Origin: Microthyrium microscopicum | Lineage: Eukaryota | Direction: 5' to 3' | Length of the DNA stretch: 64,000 nucleotides | NCBI GenBank assembly: GCA_010405405.1 | Contig: MU004230.1 | Span: forward strand, 1,522,627-1,586,626 | Shown here: positions 2,830 through 24,082 of the stretch, piece after piece | Layout of the letters: every line of letters begins with the position of its first letter | Position numbering within the stretch: position 1 is the first letter of the stretch | The notes under the pieces: generated by a model | Seen by the model: the letters and a program-made list of their open reading frames with translations, nothing else | Told to the model about the DNA's origin: nothing | Databases searched by the model: none | Program-made: the position numbers and the translations under genes

Positions 2830-3840
2830 TCATGGTAATGCTCTTTTATTTTCCCACCATCTTAATCCATTGATCGCTCGTTCAAACGTCCACATGGTAA
2901 CGGCACTTGTTGGCGCAGCTTTCACCAGCGCTACCGTTAAGCCACGGTACATGCCTCTTACTCCCTCGCGTTTCAATATCATCTTGATTGTACCCGACAC
3001 GCCAGTATACTCTGGAATATTGCGGTTCACATATAGCCCACGACTCGGACCTTGCACTTGCAACCGCTTGCGCACAGTATCGAGTGGATAGACTGCGGTC
3101 TTTGCTAGGACACTAGCCAGCACGCCCGCCAGTCCATCGCCCGAGCCCAAAGCCATCAAGGGCAACGACGTATTGGCCACAATGGGCTTGAATGTTTCGT
3201 ACGCGGTAAAGAATAATCCCATGTATGGAATGATTTGTACATTGGCGGCGCCGAGTCCGCGGAAGAAACCACGACGACCTTCGGTTTCTGCGATCTGGCG
3301 GATACCGCTAAGTAGGGAGGGATAGACTTTCTCAGTGCCTTGCGCAGCGAAACGTGTACGAAGTAGATCAAGCGGGTATGTGGCAGTTGTCGATATGGTG
3401 CCGGCCGTGGCTCCAGCAATGAACGAACATGCTGTCGGAGAAGGATGGAAAGGGAGGCTTGGTGATTCGAGTACTTCGTTTATGGTACGGTACGTGAGGA
3501 ATTGGAGGGCGCCATATGTGAGATATAGGCCTTCGGCAGGAATATTGCCTTTCCAGAATGCCTATCACAGTCAATTCTAGTTGCACTAGAGGCGAAGCTC
3601 TTCACGAACAGTTATGCCTTCTTCGCGTAGTATCTGGGTGACGGTGCGATAAATGCCGGAGTATGCTCCCGCACGACCATTTGGACGATTCAATGGATCG
3701 CTCAAAGAGTGGATTTGAAGCTGTAGACGGATCTTCAGTACGTCTAGGGGAGATATCACGAAGCGGCTTATTAAACCAGCAAAAGCGCCCGCGATCACGA
3801 CTTGGACACGCGAGCCTTCATCTTTCAAGCGCTGGACCAT
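2830..3840 (-). CDS. TPC1: Mitochondrial thiamine pyrophosphate carrier (SLC25 family)
   Basis: Three PX[DE]XX[KR] carrier motifs ([32 protein letters not shown]). The N-terminus [15 protein letters not shown]...QIHSLSDP resembles ascomycete Tpc1. One 48-nt intron at 3562-3609 (GTTCGT...TAG) restores the frame. Confidence 0.88.
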
Positions 3841-4098
3841 CCGCCTTGATGGGACGTCTGCAGAAGAGGTGCTAGACTAAAGCATGTGTAAACAAACAGT
3901 ACAATGGTTGATAAAATAGACGATTCGATGATTGAAGATTAGAGTTTTGGGATAACGGTTGGACAATGATTTGTTTTGGAAAATGCACGGTGACGTCTAG
4001 ACACGGCTAAAACCGGCATGTAGTCGCTTGGGCCAATGATATCCGTACGGAGTAGAGCAAGGATGGTGTGTGTTGGTCGTGGCTTCCTCTCGCAAAGG

Positions 4099-4161
4099 AT
4101 TTGTAGGATGCAGGATTTAATGCGATCTGCACGGACCACTTGTGCTAAAATACTACTCCTC
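4099..4161 (+). repeat. Left terminal inverted repeat of the RIP-mutated transposon
   Basis: ATTTGTAGGATGCAGGATTTAATGCGATCTGCACGGACCACTTGTGCTAAAATACTACTCCTC is the reverse complement of 11797-11859 at 61 of 63 positions. Confidence 0.92.
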
Positions 4162-4425
4162 AACCTACACCGCTATTTAGATATTTACATATAATTCCTA
4201 ACTATTCCTTTACCTATATAAATTACGTCTCTATCGTATCAAAATTAATTTCTTATACTTAATCTCTATTATAATCTCTAAAAAAAATACTTCTAAAAGG
4301 TACTTATAGTTAGCCTAAATAGGATTATGTAAATACTACTATTACTAATCTTAGGGCAAATTAACTACTAGTACTTATCCTAAATCCTTATAGTAAAAAG
4401 AAAGCTAATACTATTATAACTATAA

Positions 4426-6180
4426 TATTAGTAAAAGGTAGACTACTATTAGAATTTATACTAAGATATTCTAGATATAAGTCTATATAGTCTTAATAAG
4501 TACTAGTGCCTTATAATATACTAATAAAGATATATAACCCTAGTACTAATATATTTACTATTAGACGTACTATTAATAACTAAGAAGTAGATAATATAGT
4601 TTAACTACATTAAATAAGTACTAGTATTAAGAAGCTAAGCAAGCTAGTAAGTAGAGAGAAGAAAGCTATAACTGTTCCTACTAGTATTAAGGACGTAGTT
4701 AATAATAATAATAACGTTAACTAAGATAATAATATTAATAAAGATATAGGATTTATAGTTATAAAGAAAAGTTTACTAAATAGGGCACTATTATTAGTAA
4801 AGGCTATAAAGGAGGAGTAAGCTTAATATACTTAAGAATTAGTAAAGATTTAAGAACAACTTTAAGTTACTACTATAATAGTAATAATAGTAATAGTAAA
4901 TAATATTACTACTATACTTATACTAGTAGTTATAAAGAATATAGTATTAACTAAGAATAAAGCCGCTAGAACTACTTAAGATATAGTTACTAGCCTAGAG
5001 GATAATAAAGTTAAAAAGAATAAAATTAAGTAGCTAAGTAAAAATAAGCTAGCTAAAGATAAAAGTAACACTATTATTAGTAATATAGACGATAATCTAT
5101 TCTATTATAGTAATAACCTTCTAGTATATAAGGTTAGTATTAAAATAAGAATATTTACTTAAAGTAGTTTAGTATTCTTTAAGAAGATAATACTACTAGT
5201 AGAGAGAAAGGACTTTTATATTAACGTCCTTAAAGATAAGCTTTATAATATAAATAAACGTACTAAGGACTACTAATATACTATTTTAGCTATTAATATT
5301 AATTAGAAGTCTTTCTATAAACGTTATATTAAAACCTATAGCTATATAGAAGTAATTATATACGCCTAATAGAATCTATAGATTAAAGCTATAGATTACT
5401 ATTTTTAGAGTAATCTTAAGAGTAGTAACCTTTATATAGTTACTATTATTACTAAATTTAATCTAACTAATATTAAGAATATTATTACTTTAGCCCTAAA
5501 GCTTCTACTAGAGGGTCTAGAAGTATATATAGATTTACTAACTTACTATTTAAATACTATTACTAATTAATATAAGAATTATAGGCCTATTTATACTATA
5601 AAGGGATCTACTAAGGAGTAGATATTTAGAAAGTAGTTATATAATATTAACTATCCTAACTAGGGTAAACTATACTAAAAGGATCCTAAAACTAATACTT
5701 ATTATAATATTACTAGTACTTAATATTAGTAATAAGCTTTTATAATAAGTATAAGTAAGACTATAGAAGCTAATACTCCTTTATATCTAATTACTTTCTA
5801 GATAAGAACTTAGAGCATAGTTAGTATTAAGCTTACTTCTAGGGGTACCTAGTTAACTATTCGTAATACCTTAAGTAATATATCTTAGGCTTAGTAAGAA
5901 TTATAAGAATCCTTAGAGACTTAGTAACTCTAAGACTAGTAAAATAGGATTACTACTTAAGTTAATTATTAGGCTAAATAAGCTTAGGCTACTTAGAATA
6001 CTACTAAACTTTATAAAGTAGCGTTAGACTAGTAAATAGACTATATAAAGCATAATTGCTAAGAGGATAATTAATAAGAATAAGATACTACTACTTATTA
6101 AATAGAGAGAAAAGAAGCTAAAAAAGAGGTTAGAGAATTATAGTAAGAATAGTACTATAAGCTATAAAGAATAATATTAG
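4426..6180 (+). pseudogene. RIP-mutated cargo ORF of the transposon (~580 codons), with a possible Cys/His motif near 5634-5780
   Basis: One reading frame stays protein-like across ~1.7 kb. The stops read are TAA/TAG, explicable as RIP products of CAA/CAG/TGG. Reverting G>A changes gives roughly W-L-C-x3-C-PN-x4-C-W-KDP-x4-H. Boundaries are approximate. Confidence 0.5.
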
Positions 6181-6199
6181 TATCTTAAATACGTTCTAT

Positions 6200-9100
6200 T
6201 ATACTTTCTTTTATTTAACTTCTAATTTAACTTCCTCTAATATAGTAATAATTTTAATTGCCTTATACTATACTAAATACTAGGCTCTAGTAGATATTCT
6301 AATCTTATCTTCTATTACTAGCCTTATATTATAGTTAACTTCTATTCTCTTTCCTTAGTTATAAATATTATATTATTATTTAGTATAATACTAACTTAGA
6401 ATTATATAGTTATAAACTTTCTACCTCCTTTTATTTCTTAACTATTATTAAATATAGATTATATTTTTTTTTTTCTTTTTATAGTTACGTTAGCTACCTT
6501 AGCTCCTTCTTCTCTATAATTCTTATTTTAAAGTAGTAGACTACTAAGTTATTTATTTATAGGTAGCGCTAATAAATAACCTACTAGCTTAATTAATTCT
6601 AGATATACTAATATTAAGCTTACTAATAAGTTTTTCTAGTAGAAGATTTATATTAAGAAGGTCTATACTACTAGTTAGAAGAGGTACTACTATATAATTA
6701 GGTCTTATAAGTAGATATTAATAGATATATAAGATAGTATAGTATAAATAATAGAGATTATAAAGCTATACGTAAAATATAACGTACCTAAGTAAATTAT
6801 TAAGTTATTTAATTTATTAATTTCTTAGTATTATATATAGATTAAAGAATAGCGTCTTAGCTATAAAACGATCTATATTTATAATAACTTAGAAACCTAT
6901 AGGCTAGCATAAAAATATAGTTAAGTAAGTAGTATAGAAGTCTAAATTATTACTAATATATTATTATATTTAAATTTAATAGGTATAGATTCTTTTTTAT
7001 ATAAAAACGATAAAAGAGATTATAGATTTATATCTATAATTTTTAGATCTTATTTCTACGCGTTAGTAAAAAAAGTTATACTTTATATTAGAGATTTTTA
7101 AATCTTTTTAATTACTACTACTATTCTTTAACTATAATAAATATTACCTTTTTATTTTTTATTAGTACTTTAGATAGTAGTTTTTAATTAGCTTACCTTT
7201 ATAGTAATTAAAAATATTTAGTTTTAATAGAATAGTAGCTTAGTAATATTTATAATAAAAAATTATGCTAATCTTTACCTCTTTATAAATTCTTATAGTA
7301 ATAAGAATTACTCTTAGAATCTAGTAATTATCTAAACTTACTTTAAAAATGCGTATATACTAATATTACTAGATTTATCTCTATTTACTAATATCTTAAC
7401 GTATTTAAATACTACTACTATTAATATCTATTTATAGCTAGATATAACCTATCTACTCTTCCTTATACTATTAGTATTTATCTACTTTACTATTATATAA
7501 GTAAATCTCTCTATTAATAGTTCTATTATAATATAACTCTATTTCTTACTATTAGTAGTTTAATAATCTCTATACTAATACTTATTTATAAACTAACTTA
7601 GCTCCTTTATAATCTCTTTTTCCTAATACCTAAGTATTTATAGGTCTAACTATAGTATATTAAGTATTTATTAAATACTTTCTTAATGCTAAGTAGTATC
7701 TAGTTTGTTTTTATAATATTATTAGTAACTTCTTTACTTCTCTCTTAATACTAAGGTAATAGCCTAATTAGTATTAGATATTAGTACTTTATTACTACTA
7801 ATCTAAATACTTCCTTAGTATCTAGTATAAGTATAAACTATTTATAAATAAAATCTTCTTAACGTAGTAAGTTTAGTACTAGAGGAGTATAAAATATATT
7901 TATTACTTACTATTCTTTAATTCTTCTTTATTTTCTTTATTTAATACTAAACTTTAGTACTATTAATAGCTAATATTATTACTTTATTACTAGTATTAGT
8001 ATAGGTTTGCTAATTTTATATAATACTACTAAAACTTAGGTTAATCTACTCTTAGTATATATTCTTATTCTATTTACTTTTTCTTTAGATTAACTTACTC
8101 TTTAGTATATATTTCTATTTTATCTACTTCTTCTTTAGGTTAACTTACCCTTTAGTATATATTCCTATTCTATCTACTTCTTCTTTAGATTAACTCTCTC
8201 TCCTAGCTCTATTAGTTTGCTATTTTAAAGAAATACTATAAAAGGTTAAGCTCTACTAGTTTACTATTCTAAAGGAATATTATAAAAGGTTAGGCTTTAT
8301 TAGCTTACTATTCTAAAAGGAATACTAAAAGAGCTAGGACTCTACTATTATTAAATTACTACTATTTAAAAGTAGTAAGAAGATTCCTAAAACTTTCTCT
8401 TTACTAGTGCGCGCCTTTACTATATTAAAAAATACTATCTTTTATATAGGACTCTAATATCTATACCTTTACTCCTATATTTTCTTTATATTATAAAAGT
8501 ATATAGAAATAAAGGTCTTAGCTTATTAACCTTAATAATATTATTAAGGGAGTTAGAATTCTATACCTTTTAGCTCTTTTATCTTTAATAAAGTATTAAA
8601 GGCTATAAGGACTTTATCTCTTTTAGTATTCTATTTCTATATTGTCTCTACGAATTATAAGTTAAGCTATTCTTTAGTATGTATTTCTTTAATATTATTA
8701 AAGCTATTAAAACTTTATAGTATTATATTAAAGAAATACTAAAAGAACTTAGGCTATATTAGCTAATAGTTTTTATTTATACCTACTATATATATATATA
8801 AAAAAGAACTATTAATTAGTATAGAATAGTTATATAATATTACTTTTATTAGTAACTATCTTTAATACTACCTAAGTTTATATTATTATTATAACTAGCA
8901 TTATTACCTTATCTTTTATATATACTTTTAATATAAGCTTTCTTATTTATCGTTTCTCTTTACTAATTATTAACTAGATTATAGTTTACTTAAATTATTA
9001 TCTTACTACTTAATCCTTAACTTAGTAATAGGCTTTAGCCTTAGGTAGTTATATCCTTTACTAGTTATATTTTATAGTAATTTACTTCCTTATTAATAGT

Positions 9101-10200
9101 TAAGTAGCACTATAAAGATTTATAAAGTATTATTAACTTTTTCTTCTCTCTATTTCTTTTATAAACTACTTTATATAATTAAATCTTCTATATCTAAGCA
9201 CTTTATATATTCTAAGTACTTTATATACTTTATACCTTTATTAAACCTTACTAAATTATTTCCTCTTACTAATTCTTATTATAATAGTTTAGTTATTAAT
9301 TAATACTCTACTTATAGGCTTTTTAGCTTTTAAAGCCTATTATAAGTAGGTAACCTATAATATAATCCTTAGCTTTAAAGATTAAGGCTTTATTCTTAAT
9401 ATTTCTAGACTACTAAAAGGTAGTATTTAACTTCCTAAGTCTTATATAAAAGGCCTTATATTTAGTACTATATATATAGTATAAACTAGTAGACTAATTA
9501 TTATTACTATTAATATTACTAATCTAATTATTAACTATATAATTAAATAGATTATAATTAATACTAATATAAGTTTATACTCTTAATTTACTATTCTTAG
9601 CTAATAAATATAGGATTTATAAGTTCTACGTTTAATTAACTATAAACCTTATTTAAGTTACCTTAGTAGTTACTATATACCTAGTAAATATAGCGTTAAT
9701 TTATATCTTATTACTTTAAACGAAAGTAATATCTTTTTTAGTAAGTACTTTTTAAATAAAAACTCTATTATTAGTCCTAGTATCTAATAATTCTCTTTTA
9801 AGGCTACTATCCTCTATAGTTAAGGCAACTTAAACTATAAATATATAAGTCTTAATAGATAGTATAATATTTACTAAAACCTCTACTACTCTATTCTTTA
9901 GCGTTATATTTAGTAATAGTAAAATCTTTATAAATATATTAGTTATCCTAACTTCTAGGGTAGTATATACTTAAACTATATTTTATATAGTAATATTTTA
10001 ACCTATAATAAGTATATATAGAATAATAATATATCTATTTAACTAAACCCTCCTATAGTATAAAAACTAAGTAAAATAATCTTTTCTACTACTAAAAATA
10101 ACCTCTTAGGCCTACTATAGTTCTAAAAGTATTAAATAGATACTAAAGGGTTAATATTATAGATTTTAAAGTCGTATAGATTCTTATTATTATTTTAATA
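6200..10200 (-). pseudogene. RIP-mutated, apparently intron-containing cargo ORF(s) of unknown function
   Basis: Purine-rich minus strand with protein-like frames and residual intron signals (e.g. ACTAACGCGTAG near 7056-7067). No recognisable domain. Confidence 0.35.
8041..8340. repeat. Two adjacent tandem arrays inside the transposon: ~3 x 50 bp (8041-8195) and ~3 x 44 bp (8206-8340)
   Basis: TTAGTATATATT recurs at 8052, 8102 and 8152. GCTYTAYTAGYTTRCTATTYTAAA recurs at 8206, 8250 and 8294. Confidence 0.8.
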
Positions 10201-10399
10201 GTTTTTATTTATATAATTATATTCTTATAATAGAATTTAATATTAGAATAGTTAGAATAAGAATAAACTAAAAATTAAGGTCTAGATAATATAATAGCTT
10301 ATTTTTAATTTATATTATAATAATAAGATACTTAATATATTATTTTTAATACTAACTCTAACTTAAATACTAGTAATATAAGATATACTAAATTTTAAT

Positions 10400-11510
10400 A
10401 TCCTAACTTTAATATTCCTTTTAATCTATAGTACCTAATATCTAAATCTAATTCTTCTTATACTATTATATAAAATTATAAAATCTATATACTTCTATAC
10501 CTTTATAATATATACTATTAGCTATATACTAAAATTATTCTTTAGTAAAGTGATTATATCTACTTACTTTAATAGTATACTTTAAAAGTTTACTAAAGTT
10601 AGTAAACTTACTATGGTCTACTATCTAATTCCTCTTTATCTAAGCCTTTAATATACTAAACGTAAGCTTAATAGGATTAAAATTAGGTAAATATAGTAGT
10701 AGATATTAAATAATATAATTAGTATCTTCTAATAACTCTTTAATACTTAAATTTATATAAATTGAAACGTTATTAAGGACTATAACTAATATTTAACTAT
10801 CTTGCCTAATAAAGTACTTTAGTATTATAAGTATAAGTTTAGTCTTAATTTATTTATAAAACTATTCCTTATTCTAGTATCCTAATTTAAAACTAATATA
10901 AGAAAGATATCCTTCTAGCATTATAGTAGTAATAATAGACTAAGTTTTTCTTTAAGTTAAGCTTTAGATATATTATAATAGTTCTCTAATTAGACTATAT
11001 ATCTTATTACGCTATTTAGTTTTTTTATTAAAAATAGATTTATTAAGGAATACTAGTTTATTTAATTTAAATTAGCTTATAAACTAGTAATATAATTAGT
11101 ATAATTAATTATTTTAAGTATATAATATTTAGATAAGCTTTTTATAAGTCTACTTATGCTATACTAGTATATAAGATATTATAGATTATAAGATATTCTT
11201 CTTAATCTCTTACTATAACTTAGTAATACCTTATTCCTTACTATAATATCTAGCTAAAGCTTAGTATTTACTAAAGTAGAGACTCCTTATCTTTAGTAGT
11301 AAGTTACTAAGGGTCGCTATAGGGTAGAAATTATAAAGGGCATATAGATCTATACTTATTAAGATTAGATTATAATTTATTAACTATTCTATAAGAATAT
11401 TCTATAGACTTAGTAATAGCTAAAGTAGTCTATTCTAAGCTACTATATTACTCTAACTTATCATACTATATCTTAGTTAGAGAGCGTCCTTTAGACTAAT
11501 ACTTTATTAT
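10400..11510 (-). pseudogene. Tc1/IS630-type DDE transposase (DD34E), RIP-inactivated
   Basis: One frame reads LVFLNKSIFNKKTK*R (restores to LVFLDESIFNEKTGWR; D1 codon 11044-11042), VIVLNNVSIY (VIVLDNVSIH; D2 10774-10772) and YLLLYLPNFNPIKLTFSILKA*IKR (YLPPYSPDFNPIELTFSVLKAWIKR; E 10669-10667). Exactly 34 residues lie between D2 and E. Ends are approximate. Confidence 0.88.
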
Positions 11511-11796
11511 TTATTATTTCCTAGTAGCTAATATTAATTAATATATATATTAACTAGGTCTTAAAGGAGATATTAGCTTAGAATTACCTATAATTAGATT
11601 AGAAGCTACTTAATCTAATTTAGGATTAGATATAGATAGGCTTATTATAATATCTATATAGATAAATCTAGGAAAATTGCTACGCTAGGAGTAATAAAAT
11701 ATATAAAAATATATAATTTATATACGATAGAGTAATTAAAATGCGTAGATAGAACGAGGTAAGATAATATATAGAATTAGCTAAATATTAAGTGTA

Positions 11797-11859
11797 GAGG
11801 AGCAGTATTTTAGTACAAGTGGTCCGTGCAGATCGCATTAAATCCTGCATCCTACAAAT
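11797..11859 (-). repeat. Right terminal inverted repeat of the RIP-mutated transposon
   Basis: GAGGAGCAGTATTTTAGTACAAGTGGTCCGTGCAGATCGCATTAAATCCTGCATCCTACAAAT, the inverse of 4099-4161. Confidence 0.92.
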
Positions 11860-12784
11860 GGCAGTTGCCCATTGCGCAAGGTCGTGGCTGCCCCTCATTG
11901 TTGATTGCCAGATTAGGAAGCGACGACTGGGAGGATGAGAACAACCTCGCAGATGGTGTGGTCAACGTTCTGCTTTTGGGCAATCTACCAATCTATATTC
12001 CCTATCATGGCTCTTCAAAAGCAATAATCTGCACTCGTTGTTTGCTCACTGAGCCTCAACTGCTTCCTGTTGGTTGATACTAACGTTAAGGGTCCATAAA
12101 CCGCCTTGTTGGTTGCTGCAATTGTCGTCAAAGACATGGCTTTTAAACCCTGAACAACAAGATGTCGATGTATGTGGAGCAATATAGAGACCGTTATCTA
12201 AGTGTCTTCAGCTTTGTAGCACTAGGACCAACAAGTATCACGGGGATTTTTACAAGGGATTCTCCATGTTTGGGTTGTGCATACCTTGCATCAAATGGGC
12301 TCACAGGCTGTGGCATTATTTCAAACAGGGAATCAAAGGGTCCGCGCAGCCCAGAACCCGCTGACCGTCTCACAGTCTCACCATCCAACCACCAAAGAGC
12401 ATCATGTACCCAGGGCCCAAGCAAGGTCAGGTGGGGACTAATCTATTGATGTGACCACCGCCTTGCTTCAATCATTCTCTCCCTCAACTCTCTATCAACC
12501 ACAACTCTCTTCGTTGACCGAGTCTGCGTTTGTAGGGAACCTATCATACAGAATTCAATACTCGCGTCATGACTATTGAACACTAGCCCTCCTCTTTAGC
12601 GCTCATCTCCAATTATACTTTGTCCGCTTGCAAGTTGCGATCTCCGTCGTCCAGATCGTTGCCTTCTTAGATCCTGGCCCACCTTTCAGCCTGTCAACTT
12701 GTCAACACCACGACGCTATCGTGATATCTGTCAACTGTCACAATGTCTCACCCATTGAGGCCGCTCTCTACAGCCCACTCCAAC

Positions 12785-14873: not shown

Positions 14874-17251
14874 TCAATACGCCCGTCGTCTTCTGGTCCG
14901 TCTTGTCGGAGGCGCCTCCCCATTATCCGGGTTCAACTGCGGATCTACTCGTCTTCCCTTCTGATCAAACCCTTCATCCTCCTCCAATCCGTCATTCCAA
15001 CTATGCACTGTACAAGTGCCCATTGAGCTGCCCCAACCATTCCACGCCGTCGCTACAAGATTCTATTAGCCAAAACGCCCTGTACATTGAGAATGAGAAA
15101 GTCTTACCAGCGATCATAGGCACATTCGGATGCCAACTAACATCACGAATAACCGTATGATAACCCCCACCCCAATGATAAGAATGGTCATCATCGTCAT
15201 CCTCGCGATCCTTCAAGAACTCCGTCGCTTTCCCCACATCAATCGTCTTGGCTAGCGTCGCATCCATATTCCACACATACACCTTTCCATCCTGGCTCCC
15301 ACTATATACATATCTACCATCCGCACTTCCCTGTGGCGCAAAATGGCATCTAATCAACGTTCTCTCTACCCGATGGCCTCTAAATGTTACTAAGGAGGAG
15401 TCCTTGGGATGTGGTTGCCAGTTGGTAAGATCGTAGTCGCCAGATCGGTAGTCCCAGGATTGGGAGTAGGCGGTGGAGTCGACTGAGCGCGCGGATTCGG
15501 GAGAGGTGCATTTGCGGATATCCCAGAGTTTGCAAGTTTGGTCTTTCGAGTTGGAGAGGAGATGCCGTCCGTCGTCTTTGGAGTCGACGTAGGTTACGCC
15601 TTCGACATGACCGAGGAATACGCCGGCTGGACGGCCATCGGAGAGAGAACGTCGATCCCAGACTTTGACGGTGCAGTCGTCGGAGCCGGAGTAGAGGATA
15701 TGTGGACTAGTACTGTCACCGTAGCAGACGGCGTTGACGTCCTACAATATTCAATTAGTAAGCAATGGAGGATGGTTGTGGGATTCTGGCCTACATCGTG
15801 ATGAGCCTGTATCTGAAGTATACTTTGATTGCGTTCAATGTCAAAAACGTAGACGCTGTTATCGCCAGTGCCGGCCACGATTTCGCGTCCGTCGCCGGAG
15901 AAGCGGACGGAGTAGACGGAGAACCAGCGGCCATAGTCTCGATGTCGTCGTGGCACGCCTGATCCAAAACGAGATAGATCGAGAGGCTGGGGAGTACTTT
16001 CTGCGTCGCGATCTACTGATGCTAGGCAAACCTAGATGATGTTAGAATGCTCATTTGTTGCAGTGCGAATTACCATACCATATGCGTCATTGAGCTGTAG
16101 ACCAAGTGCCGATTATCAGGACTTAGACTTGCATCTGTCAAAGTCCATTGGCCATACGGCATATCCAAGCTCTTGTAGTATTTCCAATCATATGGATTTG
16201 ATGTATCGTACATCCGAACTTTGAAATCTTGACTACACGAGAAGAAGAATGTACCATCCGCAGAAAACTGCCCAGAGTAGCATCGCTGAGGATATTGAAT
16301 GATCATGTCCGCAGGATCCTCTGGATAAAAGTTTTGTTTGAGCAGAGACGAGTTGACCTTCTCCCGACCCCAGCCTGTCGAGCCCAGTTCTCTATCTAGA
16401 ATTCGACGAGCATGTTTCTTAGTCTGGTTGATTCGACTTTGACGCCGCTCAGGATGACCAAAAGTTCCAGACTCTACCAAATCGCGACCAACTGGGTTTG
16501 GAACTGGTTCTAATGGTGGAGCTTCTCGTCGCGGTCGGCGTCGGGAGTACAGGTACCTATGCTCTTCTTCATCGTCATCGTCTTGTACAACGCCGCGTTG
16601 TAACGTTCCAAGAGTGCGCCTAAAGCTGCCTCCCACGCCTACGGTGTTTATCAGCCGTAAGAGTTGATTGCGGGATACTAACAAAATGTGAGCTCTTGAT
16701 CAAGGAGACATATGTTGAGACTTACGCAGAAGTGGTGTTGTGTGTGTTGTCGCAGCTGGAACTTCTTCATCACTGTCACTTTCTTCCTCCTCGTCTTCAT
16801 CAGAATCTGAACCTGAAATGTTTAGTGATCTGATATCTCGCAAATATAAAGTCAAGTCAAACCTTCTCCAGCAATTTCTTCTTGGATGATCTCGGTGAGC
16901 AATTCGATCTCACCAGCATCTGCATCGTCGAGATCAAAATACTCCTCATCGTTACCCGAATCTGGTGCTTCCTCTACTAACGAATTAGAGTTTCTGCTGT
17001 GTGACTGGGCGACGCCCGGTGTGACCAAAGCGCGTTTAAAGTTTAAACATACCATACTCATCATCGCTCTCATCAGTAACATAATCAACATCTCGTTGGT
17101 TTCGCAATGGGACGTAATCGGGGTCATCTTCATCAATATCCATATCGTCATCGGTTTCGTACAAGCTGGCCGTACCAGGCTCGCTTGAGGTTGCTCTTGC
17201 GCCAACCGACGACGCACTTTGAGAATTACTGGTACCTGGAGCTGCACTCAT
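14874..17251 (-). CDS. WD40-repeat protein, WDR23/DCAF11 (LEC14B)-like CUL4-DDB1 substrate receptor; multi-exon
   Basis: Motifs CYSGQFSADGTFFFSCSQDFKVRMYD, GQWTLTDASLSPDN, FSVYSVRFSGDGREIVAGT, GHRVERTLIRCHFAP and IRDVSWHP. Several short GT-AG introns. Confidence 0.85.
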
Positions 17252-18807
17252 TTTGCCTTGGTATTGCAGTATCTTTGACCTATGTTGCGGTATATATGGT
17301 CTCAGCGGGGTGAGTTGGTGGTTTGGTACGGTACATTGATAGCGGACTAGTGGCGTTTACCGCTATATCCGGTAATTAGAGGGGATTTCACCTGAAGAAG
17401 TGAGGTGAAACTTTAGGGTGGTTTATGCTTGCGGTTAGCCGAGGTCAGCCTTGTCTTCAGCCTTGCTCACTTACCAGAGTGACTTGTAGGAGTATTACTG
17501 TATCAGACAGTCGGCGAACACCACCGGAGTGAGAGATGAGTTTAATTGCTTGAAAAGTTTCATGTGGAATATACGTCACAATGAGCTTTGCATCATACAT
17601 TATCTGCGAAAGCATTTTGTTGATTGGAAGAAAAGTCGATTGAGAACCTACCCGGATTGCATCAGCAAAATAGTAACATAAAAGCTACTATGCTGAGTTG
17701 AAGCAGGAGTAGAGTGCTGAAGTTGTCCTACAATACATCAAGGCGAACAACACACAACAGGCGAGCCAAAACCTACCTCCCTATGAGCTGATCCAGCAAA
17801 CACTTCCTGCCGACCCTCCAACAATCGCAGATCATATTACGCATATTATGACAGTCAATTTCCAGGATTCATTCATGAGGGCATGTTTCAGCTTGACTTT
17901 GTCAAGTTGTAGACATATAAAACTGGGGAGCCTTACTTGCTCGCAATGCGCCGACTATTTTTATTATCAAGTACTACGTTTTCCTCTAATTCCAGCGGTC
18001 AGGAAAACCAACTGTCCTTACCTCCACCTTGTGCACTTTGAGTTCGAGTGCGCCATCTACTTAGTTACCCAGAAACACCATTTAAAGCGACTTCAGGTGA
18101 ATTAGTGACATGGGCAGGAAATACTCTACTGTTTATAACATGCGATGTCAGCCAGCAAGTGGATGAGCGCGTCGCTTATTTGTCCAGCGATTATGACGCT
18201 TCAAAAGCCTTCCTACTTACCGAGCAAGATGGTAGCTTTGCTCTTTTCTCAGCCTTTGACTGTTGTGTTTATCATGGGTTCTATATGCCCTTCAAGGCAT
18301 TGGAAATAACTTTCTCGCTCACTAAATACCTGGATGTCACAAGAAAGACGACCGTCTTTCTATATGAAGGGCGATGGTAATCATGGACCGCTTTACTGGG
18401 TGTTCTCTATGACATTTGATATAAATACCTTATACAATATCTCTCAGATGTCAAATACAATGGGAAATCTGGCAGCTTTATATGCGTAAGTTATAATGGG
18501 AACATACTGCTCTATTTCTTATTCCACGAATCAAAAGCTTTCCAGTTTATTGAATACGATGGGAACATTGTGAGTTTTTCTTTAATGAGAGGGCTTTTTG
18601 TTGCTATCAACTCTTCTGTTCCGGTTTGTCAAATGCTCTCAGTCCGATCTAGCTTTTTAAAACAACCACTTATGTATCGACTACAATGAGATATTTAAGT
18701 GATACTTATGAAGAGAAGCTGATAGGAGCGATCAAGACCATGAACCATCCAGCACTTTACATCCCTTGTGATTTGTAAAAGGTCTGAGTATGTTATGGGA
18801 TACTATA

Positions 18808-19033
18808 GGTAACCAACGGGTTGGCAAAATAAATGGCGCGCTTCCATCAACCTTGTTGGCTCCTAGATGCTACGCTCTTTTATCGAATGCTCTACTTGCT
18901 ATAGACGTTGTTTAGAATCGAATAATTTATCGAATACACTAGGGAATTCTAGCACCTTATGCTTAAGAGCGTTGGTGGCAGCCATTAGAGTTCATGGGAG
19001 AAGGCCATTTATTTTGCCATGCCGTTAGTAACT
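18808..19033. mobile_element. 226-bp MITE-like element with ~50-bp imperfect TIRs and flanking TA (copy B)
   Basis: Left end GGTAACCAACGGGTTGGCAAAATAAATGGC; reverse complement of right end AGTTACTAACGGCATGGCAAAATAAATGGC. TA at 18806-18807 and 19034-19035. A second copy lies at ~2615-2814. Confidence 0.75.
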
Positions 19034-19507
19034 TAGCACTATTTCTTTATAGCAGCTGATGGTTTCCATCAGCTGCTTTAGTTATCAAGTGCGCTATTAG
19101 TTAATGAACAGAATACAAATCTACTAAAGTCAGATTGTAGAATTAGGTAAAACTAGCACTCTGTATCTCTCTAATATAAGTAGAAACTTTGTTCGATATC
19201 ATAGATACTGGAGAATTCTCTCGATATACTATCTGGTCACGCTCAGAGACCGGTTAGTGCTTAACAGCCGAAAATACCGCCCCCTTTGAGTTAATTCATA
19301 CAATGTTAATCCTAAGTCTCCTATCGATATCTCGAATGGAAAACTCCGCGGCAGGCTGGTGTTAGACATGAGTAATGTTACCTTACGAGAAGAGAGAGCG
19401 CTGAGGCTCTACGTGCTTCATACACTCCGATTTTGCATCATACATGACCAAAAAAAAGGCCGATATCTATTTCTGACCGCAACCTATTCAACACAGCTCT
19501 TTGGATC

Positions 19508-19514
19508 AAAAAAA
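19508..19514 (-). terminator. Probable RNA polymerase III terminator (T7) downstream of tRNA-Asp
   Basis: A7 on the plus strand is T7 on the minus strand, 15 nt after the tRNA discriminator base. Confidence 0.7.
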
Positions 19515-19529
19515 GAAGTGGTAGATGTT

Positions 19530-19727
19530 CTCTCCCGCCGGGAATTGAACCCCTGATATGATGTTAGTTATAACTCAGGAGGGCGGATGTAGAAATCTTA
19601 CGGGTCTCGAGCGAATTGCAGCCCTTGCTAGGGTTTGACAAGCTCATATACTAGCCACTGATTGGTGTTAGCTATTGAACACTAGACAGAAACGGCTAGG
19701 GTTAGGGCGAACCTATACTACGGAAGA
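19530..19727 (-). tRNA. tRNA-Asp(GTC) split by two spliceosomal-type introns (19658-19712 and 19553-19601) and one canonical anticodon-loop intron (19614-19635)
   Basis: Spliced product: TCTTCCG TA GTATAG|TGGCTAGTAT A TGAGC TTGTCA[22 nt]C GCTCG AGAC CC|GGG TTCAATT CCCGG CGGGAGA G. It has a 7-bp acceptor stem, 5-bp anticodon stem, perfect 5-bp T stem, intact B box and G discriminator. Confidence 0.9.
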
Positions 19728-21800
19728 GATATATGAGTTAAACTCATTGTAGTTTTCAGATGAAATTGGTGAAGGAATATTTGCCAACATCGGTAAATAT
19801 ACAACAACAACACATCCCTAACTACCTCATTTGATTTATCCGCTGCAGCCAAAAGCTACAGCACAATAAACCTTTTCACAGCTACTTGATACAACTAACA
19901 GGTATCATTTACTCGAGCCAAGCAATTATCTAATTGACGGGATACAGTAGACTCAATCTTCACAATAAGTAATCTCTCGATGTTTGACATAGTAGGCTAT
20001 CTGAGCGTACTAACTAGGTAGTAACAGGTAAGAGTAGAGCACGGCATACTATGGGCCATCAATCTTGAAATTCCACATCATGTAGCCAAAGCATAGAGTT
20101 GGAAATCATTTCTAGGTATGTATTGATGAGTTGCAAAAAGTGCTTCTTAAGTACGGCTTACATTGTTTTGAGCACAAACAAATCCCAAGGGCACAAGTGG
20201 AAGTAGATTGAAGTACAAAAGTGCTTCCAAAATGCTCTTTGTTTGAGAGGCACGAAATGCATTCTTGGTGGTGAGCTTCAGAAGATTAACGAGTCTGCTT
20301 GATTTCCTTTTGAATTTTGTAATTCCTACATAACATTGCTTGAAACTAATGGAATTCTATCTTAACGTTTCGAATAAATAGGTATTTAAGAGTTTTCTAG
20401 GTCTGAATATCCTGTGTTGCGACCAAAAGAAAAATTAACTGAAGTTCTAGTAGCGTGTGCCCATCAGCTTCAAAGGCTACCACGAAAGCTACCAATAAAA
20501 GGGGCTATGATTTCCATTGCCTCCTTTAAATCGTACCAGTCTAAACGCTCGTTATGGCTCTGAACGCTTTCGATCCCAGAGCTTGTTGTGAGGGAGCCAT
20601 CGAAGTCGATGGGAACACCGCTTGTAGTCGCGAATATCGCACGATCATCTTGCCAATCTATAGCCCATTCAATGGAATCAGAGGCGCTGTTCCTTTCAAA
20701 CTCCTATAGCAAAGTGCGTAGTCGATGGGTATATCGTCTAAATTTCTCACTCATTCTAACCCTAGAGAGAGTAGTACTGAAGACTGTACTGTAATGTGAT
20801 ATAAACCCATTTACCTTATGAAATGAATTGCAAAGTTTCAAAGTCCGACTGGCTTTCTATACAGTCATAAGTTGCTGTTATAGTCAAAACAACTATGCTC
20901 GGCTGTAGAGACAGAGACAGTACAAATCGAAATCTCCAACACATCACGACTTGTTAGACTGAGAATTGAGCCTACGTCTCTTGCTTGACGAGACCGACAC
21001 GTTTGCCAATGAACAAACCAATGGCCAAACTTTATGGAATGATCGCATAAAGCGCTATACTTGCCATGTTATATTATGAAGACGGTATACTCTAAATTTC
21101 ATCGCAATCAATGGACCACCTGCAAACTAGAATTCGATACCTCCTATGACAGTCAAGATAATGGGCTTCACGCCAGATACGTTCTCAAGAGTTGCCAGCT
21201 TTCTAGAAGCTCGCGGTGGTGATTTGGCAAGTTTAGATAGCGAGCCATACTTCGCACCAGGAAGATAAAGTTTGTTTGATTTTCAATAATCATTCGCTAT
21301 CAATTGTATCTCATCCATCTTCATCGCTACAGCCCAACCCAAACCAGCCGAACGCCACGCAAATCACACCCAAAAATCCTTTACGAACTCCAAGAGTTCG
21401 CGATGCAAAACTCAACCAACATAGCCATACAAGTATGAAGGTGGAACACAAGACACGACAAAAGCTAGAGAGGGAATGCACTTGGCTTGCCATCCAGGAC
21501 ATTTTTGGAACAAAAAGGTCAATGGGATATAATTCTAAAAGATAAGAAGAAGATAGAAATGAAGGCACACCACGAACAATGGTATAAAGTGGTATGAAAC
21601 AGTCTTACACTCTAACCCGCTAGAATCGTTGACAAGATACGAATCGAAGAATCGCATTGATAAAAAGATGGTAGAGAAACCAACGAGGATATGCAAAATT
21701 CGTTCATGCATAAGGGAGATGGCTAGAAAACAAGGCTTGATCGTGACATAGAAAAAACGCGCATAGTGTGAATGCGCGAGGAAAAAAGGAATTGATAGTT

Positions 21801-24082
21801 CTATCGTTCGCCTCTTGACATCTTGTTCACCAGTGCCATGACCGCCACGCCTATCAAAACTACACTCATTGCAGATAAATATGGCGCTGCTTGCACAAGT
21901 TGACCTTGCGCATGCTTCATGGTCGTCCCTCCGTCGCCTGTGCGTGGTAGAAAAGAGTGTGACAGATGGCCATTTGAATAAGAAACTGATTTTGGTTTGA
22001 TGGTTTCGTTGTTGTGATCCGAATAATCAATTTCCCTTGAATGGTTGGCGACTTGATCTGCTTCATCTTCCGTTGAACTATCAAATTGGGAGATTGCTCG
22101 CCCATCTCGCTTCTGGGTCTCACGCTTTCGTTCTTTACGTTCCTGGCGGTCTTGTTCTTCTTTTCGAAGCTTTTGCACCATCTCCATCAAGCCCACTTTC
22201 TCTTTCCGTTCCTCATCACGCTCTTTCTCGGCATTCTCCTTCTCTAGTCTCCACTTCTCAGCCATTTCCTTCACTTCTTGGAACTCGACTAACAACAAGT
22301 CCAGCCGTTGTTTTAGCTTGTCAGTGGTAGTTTCTGTGGAAACCTTATTTCCCACATCGGAGCTGGCTTCATCTTCGATAGGTGTTGTTACACCTTCTGA
22401 GCCTGTGAGGTTGGGAGGTCCATTGGCCTTGGAGGTATTTTGTTCTAGTTGCCTTGCTCGGGCCTCAGCGTCTTCTCGTTTCGTTCGCTCTAATACAAGT
22501 AGATCTTCCATCTCCCGGCACCTCCTGCTTTGGCTTTCTAGCTCTTTCTTGGTTAACGCCAATGCTTCAGAAAGACTCGCGAATTGTGACACTGTATTGC
22601 TATCCAATCTGAGGGAGCCAGATGAAGACCCATTAGGTAACTTTGGTCGTTCCGTATCTGACCGTTTTAGGCCTGAAAGGTTTCCAGATAGTTCGGGCTT
22701 TTCAGGAAGCGGAGCTTGTGGCGGAGGATTTGGTGGGTCGCAAAATCGTGGTTTTAAAGGTGGATCCGTGAAAGAAACCGGTGGTTTTCTTGAATCGACG
22801 GGTGATCCAGGACCTCCTGGTGCGGGAAGTGATGGCTCCTTTGACGGGGGTGGTTGAGTTGCATTTAGCAGAGAGTCAAGAAATTGACTTGATCGTTGTA
22901 GTTCAGTAGCCTGTTGTTGGGCCAATTTGTATTCAACCTTTAGGTTTATTAGATACATTCCGAACGTAAATGGTGAAAACTTACAGTTAAGCGTTTGATA
23001 ACGGCATCCATATTAGGTGGCTGCAGGAAAAATGGAGGCCTTTGAGGAGGTGCATTATTAGGTATAGAACCTGGAACGTTGCTCATCTGATTTCGCATGG
23101 GCATCAGATCGCTCTGACCTGATTTTCGCCGCATGTGACCCATTGCTTGCATCATTTGAGCTTGATGGCTATTTGGATCCATCTCACTACCAATGTTGAG
23201 ATCAATGAGTGCATTTGAGCTCATAAATCCGGCATGCTCAACTCTCGCAGCTACTTTATGGTGAACAACAGTCTTCTGGTCCTCGCTAACAATATCGATG
23301 CCCAACTCAAGCATATCTTGATCTCTAAGCTCATGAGGGTCGGAATCTTTGTTCTCTTGCGACAATCGGTGACCATTGACAAACGTGCCGTTTGAAGATT
23401 TGATATCTCTTATCCATATTTTGCCATTCCTGTCTGCCCATACTTCGGCATGTGATCTGGACAAGACTTTTGAGTCAAAATAGCCATTGTATTGGGTAGG
23501 GAGGCTTTTGGCGTTTGTCTGCCTGCCGATCTTAATGACATCTGGAAAAAAAGGAACGGTAATAGTTTTGCGCTCGAATGTTCCATTCATAGGCGTGAGA
23601 TAGAGAACTGGGGTAGTCTCATTAACAGTACTCCTCACTCCATTAGTCTGTGAGATTGACTGGTTCTGATTCAAAACTGGTCCAGGGGCTTGAAGTGCTG
23701 ATATTGCCGAGGCAGCTGATGGTCCAGAGGAAGATGTCATTGACTGTGTTCGCGCGGTTGATATACCGGCTGTGGGTTCCGCTTTGGCCATCGGCCATTG
23801 ATATCTAGATGGCCGTTTTCTTGCCTGTGAATCAGCGCTAGAGGCCGAGTTTTGTGGTACTGATCCAGTTGAGGAAACAGAAGCTGTAGAGGTGGAGGAA
23901 GCGACAGAAGATAGCGAAGACGAGGAATTTGATCTTGTTGCGGTTTTTCTGGGTTGCATGAGCATTCTCGACACTTCGTCGGCACTCATGGCAGGTATTC
24001 CGTTAGGTGGAGGGTTGGAGGAACCCCATGCCGATCTAGTGTTGAGATTCTGAAAATTCGGGGGAGGGGCAACAGCCGTCAT
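21801..24082 (-). CDS. VPS64: FHA-domain, coiled-coil, tail-anchored protein Vps64/Far9 (SLMAP/HAM-4/PRO45; STRIPAK component)
   Basis: FHA motifs IKIGRQTN, FDSKVLSRSHAE and DIKSSNGTFVNG; coiled coils; C-terminal TM (PYLSAMSVVLIGVAVMALVN). A 47-nt intron at 22938-22984 joins the two ORF-track segments. Confidence 0.9.

Follow-up and report, generated by a model that had tools for sequence, protein, structure and literature searches.

In Schizosaccharomyces pombe and further fungi, the U6 small nuclear RNA (snRNA) gene has been described as carrying an intron of the messenger RNA (mRNA) type (Tani and Ohshima 1989, 1991; PMC5855946), and ascomycetes are also reported to have spliceosomal introns in their nuclear ribosomal DNA (rDNA; Bhattacharya et al. 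2000, cited in PMC5855946). Where a 2018 review on U6 enumerates the non-mRNA hosts of such introns, it names U6, U2, U5, U1 and ribosomal RNA, and transfer RNA (tRNA) does not figure in that enumeration (PMC5855946). The canonical intron of nuclear tRNA genes, located between tRNA positions 37 and 38, is removed by the SEN endonuclease and tRNA ligase, and in the relevant sections of the reviews PMC10275265 (2023) and PMC13149111 (2026) nuclear tRNA splicing is presented as a protein-only process, independent of the spliceosome. Multiple and ectopic tRNA introns delimited by a bulge-helix-bulge (BHB) motif are recorded for Cyanidioschyzon merolae, for cryptophyte and chlorarachniophyte nucleomorphs and for Crenarchaeota (PMC4090602), in a 2014 review of tRNA introns in which the string "spliceosom" does not occur. 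The part of the tRNAscan-SE 2.0 description that deals with noncanonical introns presents models for them only for Archaea. In this work, we analyzed a tRNA-Asp(GTC) gene located at 19727-19530, on the minus strand, of a 64,000-nucleotide (nt) stretch of the genome of the ascomycete Microthyrium microscopicum (assembly GCA_010405405.1, contig MU004230.1, positions 1,522,627 to 1,586,626), hereafter the window. The gene lies there in three pieces, separated by two GT...CTAAC...CAG inserts, and it is very probably a functional nuclear tRNA-Asp(GUC) gene, interrupted at tRNA positions 15/16 and 50/51 by two spliceosomal introns of the U2 type (GT-AG). An initial annotation, made from the letters of the window, had pointed out the gene and was not aware of spliceosomal introns having been described in tRNA genes; full-text literature searches, with subscription journals outside their scope, found no such report either.

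The coordinates and insert sequences of the initial annotation were reproduced exactly, and the gene has the following layout:

19713-19727, minus strand: exon 1, 15 nt, tRNA positions 1-15 (5' acceptor strand, positions 8-9, 5' strand of the D-stem, A14 and G15)
19658-19712, minus strand: insert 1, 55 nt, spliceosome-type, at tRNA position 15/16 in the D-loop; donor GTTCGC, branch site GCTAAC (19673-19667), end CAG, branch A 10 nt before the 3' end
19602-19657, minus strand: exon 2, 56 nt including the 22-nt canonical intron
19636-19657, minus strand: exon 2a, tRNA positions 16-37 (D-loop GG, 3' strand of the D-stem, 5' strand of the anticodon stem, anticodon GTC and A37)
19614-19635, minus strand: canonical tRNA intron, 22 nt at 37/38, of the endonuclease type by its position and called as an intron by ARAGORN
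19602-19613, minus strand: exon 2b, tRNA positions 38-50 (C38, 3' strand of the anticodon stem, 4-nt variable loop AGAC, T-stem positions 49-50)
19553-19601, minus strand: insert 2, 49 nt, spliceosome-type, at tRNA position 50/51 in the 5' strand of the T-stem; donor GTAAGA, branch site AACTAAC (19569-19563), end CAG, branch A 11 nt before the 3' end
19530-19552, minus strand: exon 3, 23 nt, tRNA positions 51-73 (remaining T-arm, 3' acceptor strand and discriminator G73)

The boundaries of both inserts can be slid by one G without any change in the product. On the 64-kb window as on the unspliced locus, ARAGORN made no tRNA call, and Rfam returned no match at gathering score in the window and none at E<=10 in 19300-19950. 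When inserts 1 and 2 were removed in silico, ARAGORN recognised a tRNA-Asp(gtc) of 72 nt whose anticodon loop holds a 22-nt intron, and all 21 standard stem pairs (21/21) were formed in the spliced molecule. The initial annotation had claimed that exact GT...AG removal restores the stems, that a separate 22-nt intron occupies the canonical 37/38 site and that standard tRNA finders would probably miss such genes; all of this was borne out. The spliced tRNA also has G73, the GUC anticodon, C38 and the G10-U25 pair, which we take to be the identity set of the yeast aspartyl-tRNA synthetase (AspRS). The result is specific to this locus: loosely defined GT...CTNAY...AG segments were removed across the window, 4305 singly and 17198 as nearby pairs, and ARAGORN was run on each of these 21,503 trial removals, which yielded seven calls, all at the tRNA-Asp locus and none elsewhere in the window. 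With the pattern GTNNG...CTRAC...YAG (40-100 nt, both strands), 68 segments fit in the whole window, both inserts included.

Transcription and splicing of the locus were assessed with Logan contigs of four sequencing runs (X1, X3 and X4 from DNA, X5 from RNA) placed on 16500-22500. The joints and pieces given below rest on the placements listed for these contigs, and the joints at the inserts are deduced from a contig end and from depths per bin. In the RNA run, record 25 skips three minus-strand GT..AG introns of the neighbouring gene with no other letters involved, which shows that the run is RNA from this same organism. The next gene along is covered by record 30, again without other letters. 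Record 29 of the same run (482 letters, depth 14.2) spans 19191-19752, with the gene on the minus strand, and apparently does not include the two GT-AG inserts. Over letters 1-362 it follows 19191-19551 without other letters, save one extra letter in the T8 run described below, after which collinearity is lost at the boundary of insert 2; the stop at 19551 coincides with this boundary, as positions 19552 and 19601 both carry G and are interchangeable here. The depth of 6.87 in bin 19515-19715 corresponds to 97 bases, that is, 37 from 19515-19551, 57 from 19601-19657 and 3 from 19713-19715, the 57-nt middle piece being exon 2 with its canonical intron. In bin 19716-19916 the depth of 2.62 corresponds to 37 bases (19716-19752). 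The same product of depth and bin width reproduces exactly the pieces listed for record 25. Other compositions of the contig do not agree with these values: an unspliced contig would leave bin 19716-19916 empty, against the observed 2.62, and the 6.87 observed in bin 19515-19715 would be about 10.7 if insert 1 were retained and about 5.3 if the canonical intron were lost. Apparently, then, the depth of record 29 is best fitted by an RNA from which both GT-AG inserts have been removed and in which the canonical 22-nt intron is retained. In the three DNA runs, the depth over 19113-20318 is that of a single contiguous contig, and no intron-less copy was placed. The RNA run gave no cover on 19917-20318 or on 17304-18710.

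A second split tRNA-Asp gene was obtained from a scan of metagenomes for a variable loop followed by GT, 30-60 bases, AG and a T-loop, a pattern that demanded neither an insert at 15/16, nor one at 30/31, nor any branch site. The scan gave 42 loci, 40 of which lie in bacterial-looking tRNA or transfer-messenger RNA neighbourhoods. L023 (from a 59-kb contig) and L032 (from a 13-kb contig) carry an identical 248-nt gene and differ at 3 positions in an overlap of 899 nt. In this gene, four exons of 15, 15, 36 and 23 nt are separated by three GT-AG inserts, on the minus strand of L023:

tRNA position 15/16, L023 minus strand: insert of 56 nt
tRNA position 30/31, L023 minus strand: insert of 53 nt
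tRNA position 50/51, L023 minus strand: insert of 50 nt

A canonical intron of 17 nt is present in addition. As with the window gene, ARAGORN is blank on the unspliced sequence, and the three removals give a 72-nt tRNA-Asp(gtc). The two genes thus have the insert positions 15/16 and 50/51 in common, and 30/31 is found in L023 only. In the 30/31 insert, a CAG 1-3 nt past the branch site is passed over and a TAG at +11 is used, and skipping an acceptor that lies too close to the branch is the behaviour expected of the spliceosome. The 15-nt internal exon between two GT-AG inserts at L023 764-778 (plus-strand coordinates) would be an extreme spliceosomal micro-exon. In the part of L023 that holds the gene with about 600 nt on each side, no convincing open reading frame was found, and blastn and tblastx comparisons of these L023/L032 flanks (about 600 nt on each side) with the window gave no similarity, the last tRNA exon being the sole match. 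A similar pattern applied to prokaryote genomes (78 loci) and viral contigs (6 loci) gave false positives exclusively. Besides, 132 single removals over 126 scan loci produced no tRNA across the junction; L023 and L032 also escape this procedure, as they need three removals.

The five GT-AG inserts of the two genes (two in the window, three in L023) share the anatomy of spliceosomal introns. All five start with GT and end with CAG (four inserts) or TAG (one insert); the branch motif is CTAAC in four and CTAAT in the fifth, and in every case 10-11 nt separate the branch A from the 3' end. The donors are GTTCGC and GTAAGA in the window and GTACAT, GTTAGT and GTAAGC in L023, two of the five being off the consensus GTRNGT. 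The initial annotation had described a GT donor, an RCTAAC branch point and a CAG acceptor in the two window inserts, and these are present in both, with no BHB motif. It had also likened the insert lengths to those of mRNA introns in the window, and this comparison holds for the adjoining WD40-type gene, in which the introns supported by RNA (run X5) measure 48, 50 and 79 nt, with donors GTAAGT, GTTTGA and GTATGT and branch-to-end distances of 9-11 nt. The five inserts, at 49-56 nt, fall within the range of these local mRNA introns, and candidate introns with strict motifs in the window genome (n=18) have a median length of 59.5 nt. As for the rare GTTCG donor, which had been said to occur in a carrier-gene intron as well, it was found in a mitochondrial-carrier gene (Pfam Mito_carr): a 48-nt insert at 3562-3609, minus strand, with in-frame stops, donor GTTCGT, a TTGAC-type branch site and a TAG end, the removal of which joins ...REEGIT to AFWKGN... 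and restores the carrier motif, an intron defined here by continuity of the reading frame and not by RNA.

These signals have to be set against the possibility that both inserts are ectopic introns of the endonuclease type, cut at BHB motifs, with coincidental GT and AG ends. Several introns in the D- and T-arms of one gene are indeed known from nuclear and nucleomorph tRNA genes, and eukaryotic enzymes are able to cut BHB substrates, as stated in the parts of PMC4090602 that deal with them. A crude, ungapped, custom-written scan for the motif (4-bp central helix, 3-nt bulges) found it in 0/5 inserts at any of 16 offsets, when 1745 of 20,000 random cut pairs (8.7%) score by the same scan. In addition, GT, a CTAAC or CTAAT branch site 10-11 nt from the end, YAG and the length of an mRNA intron occur together in all five inserts, and the RNA contig apparently drops the GT-AG inserts yet keeps the canonical intron. 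An RNA that has lost one class of insert and retained the other points to a different machine or a different timing for the two, and we regard endonuclease-type excision of the GT-AG inserts as very improbable. On the basis of the spliceosomal signals, the mRNA-intron lengths, the absence of BHB motifs from the inserts and an RNA apparently keeping the canonical intron only, we infer that the spliceosome removes both GT-AG inserts.

Three further features of insert 1 (19658-19712) were recorded. It contains the telomere-like sequence CCCTAACCCTA; it has the 9-mer AACCCTAGC in common with the canonical 22-nt intron (19614-19635), with an estimated chance of roughly 0.003; and its CTAGCC pairs with GGCTAG of the exon 2 D-loop in the minimum-energy fold.

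The second gene allowed selection on the spliced product to be evaluated, in a comparison of two sequences only. The mature tRNAs of the window and of L023 differ at 18 of 72 positions, and 12 of the 18 differences combine into six pairs that are fully compensatory (6-67, 7-66, 12-23, 28-42, 29-41 and 50-64). The remaining six comprise one one-sided change (13-22, U.G to U.U) and five unpaired positions, so that 21/21 and 20/21 standard pairs are formed in the two molecules. When 18 random substitutions were simulated, at least 20 of the 21 pairs were kept in 104 of 200,000 runs. Five of the six compensatory pairs span different exons, and such pairing matters only when the exons are joined exactly. 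The cloverleaf of the spliced product is thus under selection.

These data bear directly on the possibility that the locus is a tRNA pseudogene, decaying or redundant, or a tRNA-derived element with chance insertions, in which case splicing would be incidental and no functional tRNA would be made. The split A box and the low depth of the RNA contig would be compatible with it. Against it stand the six compensatory pairs versus a single one-sided change, a balance matched in only 104 of the 200,000 simulations; the anticodon, G73, C38 and the G10-U25 pair, kept in both genes; the intact splice signals of 5/5 inserts; the single-copy status of the locus by depth in the three DNA runs (19113-20318); and the terminator-like T runs conserved in both genes. 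The initial annotation had named decayed stems or unconserved splice signals at orthologous loci of relatives as marks of a pseudogene, and in L023 the stems and the splice signals are both intact. A pseudogene is therefore very improbable in our judgement, somewhat less so than endonuclease-type introns.

Several observations nevertheless weigh against a functional gene with two spliceosomal introns. First, splicing is deduced from one low-depth contig of one run, and the record of that run itself guesses that it is RNA. From contigs, moreover, neither the ends nor the strand of an RNA can be read, and transcripts that overlap may be fused in them; 23 letters of record 29 match nothing here, there being no AG acceptor at 19753. 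Second, the donor of insert 1, GTTCGC, is off consensus, and the donor GTACAT of the 15/16 insert in L023 is without a G at +5. Third, the split gene is known from two organisms only, the second of them from metagenome contigs, and the GT and AG of the 50/51 insert in L023 were required by the search pattern. Alignment of the intron sequences between the organisms gave z values of 3.3 and 4.2, with non-orthologous controls reaching 3.9; homology of the intron sequences is thus not demonstrable and the shared positions could be parallel gains. Fourth, with the A- and B-box sequences that we take to be the consensus, the A box is cut after its 8th base by insert 1 (TAGTATAG followed by GTTCG, not TGG), and the distance from the A box to the B box is 169 nt. 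Finally, record 29 goes on for 339 nt after the tRNA and crosses both of the T runs described below, unlike a standard product of RNA polymerase (Pol) III. Of inheritance of the 15/16 and 50/51 introns and their parallel gain, inheritance would be the simpler reading of the two sequences.

The last of these points concern the polymerase that transcribes the gene, for which the following elements are relevant:

19508-19514, minus strand: run of seven T (T7), starting 16 nt past the 3' end of the tRNA and read as a Pol III terminator
19450-19457, minus strand: run of eight T (T8), a second terminator-like run, 73 nt past the 3' end of the tRNA
19794-19801, minus strand: TATA-like TATATTTA, about 74 nt upstream of tRNA position 1, conceivably a promoter element

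Runs of at least six T occur 15 times in about 112,000 strand-bases (P about 0.004-0.008 per 30-nt span), and the T7 and T8 runs are the only ones on either strand of 17400-21300. In L023, T6 runs lie at +19 and +31 after the gene, and ATATATG lies about 65 nt upstream of it. A B-box-like GGTTCAATTCC is intact at 19551-19541, within exon 3. The rare oligo-T terminators after both genes, together with the analogy with the U6 gene of fission yeast, incline us to the view that the gene is probably transcribed by Pol III. The long RNA contig would then represent rare read-through, of a kind that a standard library can capture. The other candidate is Pol II, which would make a longer non-coding transcript, spliced co-transcriptionally, from which RNase P and RNase Z would free the tRNA. 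It would account for the extent of record 29, which exceeds the tRNA by at least 25 nt upstream and 339 nt downstream and crosses the T7 and T8 runs, and it would accommodate the split A box and the TATA-like elements about 65-74 nt upstream of the gene in both organisms. It leaves aside, however, the rare oligo-T runs directly 3' of both genes, as only Pol III termination is expected to select such runs. Besides, contigs show no RNA ends and may merge transcripts, and the depth of 14.2, compared with 466 and 742 for the neighbours, is as expected of rare read-through; as to precedent, the U6 transcript of fission yeast is made by Pol III and spliced, according to the account of it in PMC5855946. 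We thus consider transcription by Pol II a real alternative of lower probability and Pol III the preferred option. No run of at least four T is found in the five inserts; such runs are present in 1 of the 18 candidate mRNA introns of the window genome, and given that local mRNA introns rarely have them as well, their depletion in the inserts is uninformative as a sign of Pol III. Separately, the T8 run (19449-19457) is longer by one letter in the RNA contig than in the genome and in the three DNA runs, which may reflect homopolymer slippage or an assembly error.

According to the reading that we prefer, a functional gene interrupted by two spliceosomal introns, maturation of this tRNA would proceed as follows. 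The primary transcript could not form a cloverleaf, since the D-arm and the T-arm are each split. The spliceosome would recognise the GT donors, the CTAAC branch sites and the CAG acceptors by intron definition, in the way expected for this genome's mRNA introns of 48-79 nt, and would join the three exons, and the tRNA body would form only after this joining. RNase P and RNase Z would then trim the ends, the SEN endonuclease and tRNA ligase would remove the 22-nt intron, and addition of CCA and charging by AspRS would come last. RNase P, RNase Z, the SEN endonuclease and the other enzymes of these later steps recognise the folded tRNA body, and it is on this and on the RNA contig that a spliceosome-first order is based; the order of the steps after the spliceosome is one that we infer. 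The initial annotation had proposed that both the spliceosome and the tRNA endonuclease may be needed for this tRNA to mature. The splice signals, the homologue in L023 and the RNA contig all favour that proposal, and the part of it that names the machine is deduced from sequence signals.

The surroundings of the gene contain several repeats. A multi-copy repeat of about 200 nt occupies 18813-19026; its summed depth in the DNA runs climbs to about 20-70x the single-copy level, and the RNA run contains it too. Contigs that originate elsewhere match it by the dozen, with 14-39 differences each. Lying 0.5 kb downstream of the tRNA gene, this repeat is perhaps a small dispersed element. Adjoining it, at 19051-19077, lies a hairpin with a perfect stem of 12 bp and a loop of 3 nt. 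A second short repeat, at 20460-20600, shows 26 differences over 141 nt to the contigs of other loci that match it, which occur among the DNA and the RNA runs alike, and some contigs link it to the repeat at 18813-19026. Farther away, the block 4001-12000 has 20-25% GC, the rest of the window having 45-50%, and looks like the outcome of repeat-induced point mutation of old repeats. Both this block and the nearest protein clusters agree with an ascomycete as the source of the window.

If the gene is what it very probably is, it would constitute an exception to spliceosome-free tRNA splicing, an RNA with no fold until the spliceosome joins exons of 15 nt, and tRNA would enter the small group of hosts other than mRNA in which spliceosomal introns are reported. 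The supply of a tRNA would thereby be tied to the activity of the spliceosome, and the gene would offer a natural case for studying the entry of introns into structured, abundant RNAs by reverse splicing, as well as the splicing of Pol III transcripts other than U6. It is tempting to speculate further that spliceosomal introns are a regular feature of tRNA genes in an ascomycete lineage, that the split gene is the sole source of tRNA-Asp(GUC), that other isoacceptors, seemingly missing from fungal annotations, are hidden in the same way and that the introns pre-date the divergence of the two organisms; this wider proposal is speculative, and we hold it to be rather unlikely as a whole. Were the split gene the sole source, no Asp codon could be translated unless the spliceosome processed a Pol III transcript. 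Since ARAGORN and the Rfam covariance models are blank at such loci, fungal tRNA counts and reports of missing isoacceptors may be wrong, and a search that splices first and scans afterwards can recover such hidden tRNA genes.

Among the systems described so far, the closest is the U6 gene. In both cases, the gene interrupted by a GT-AG intron has Pol III signals and encodes a non-coding RNA that is stable and structured, and just as the U6 RNA works only after its spliceosomal intron has been removed, the same is proposed here for the tRNA-Asp gene. For U6, the usual proposal for the origin of the intron is reverse splicing into an abundant RNA, and the usual explanation for its gain is that U6 is a component of the spliceosome's active site, which tRNA is not. 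The tRNA-Asp gene also differs from U6 in having two or three such introns per gene, together with introns of a second kind that need a second machine. With the rDNA introns of ascomycetes it shares the host group, short GT-AG introns, a host other than mRNA that the spliceosome does not ordinarily process and absence from standard annotation; those hosts, however, are Pol I transcripts of many kilobases, whereas here the host is an RNA of 72 nt, the fold of which is broken and the exons of which are as short as 15 nt.

The resemblance to tRNA genes with BHB introns lies in the number and location of the interruptions, up to three introns including those in the D- and T-arms, and in their being invisible to tRNA finders unless spliced beforehand. 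BHB introns, in contrast, measure from 3 nt to tens of nt, are defined by structure and are cut by an endonuclease, while the GT-AG inserts of the window and of L023 have no BHB motif and carry the full set of spliceosomal signals. The 22-nt insert of the window and the 17-nt insert of L023 are, by their position, of the canonical 37/38 kind. It is the GT-AG inserts of the tRNA-Asp gene that would run counter to spliceosome-free tRNA splicing as a universal rule.

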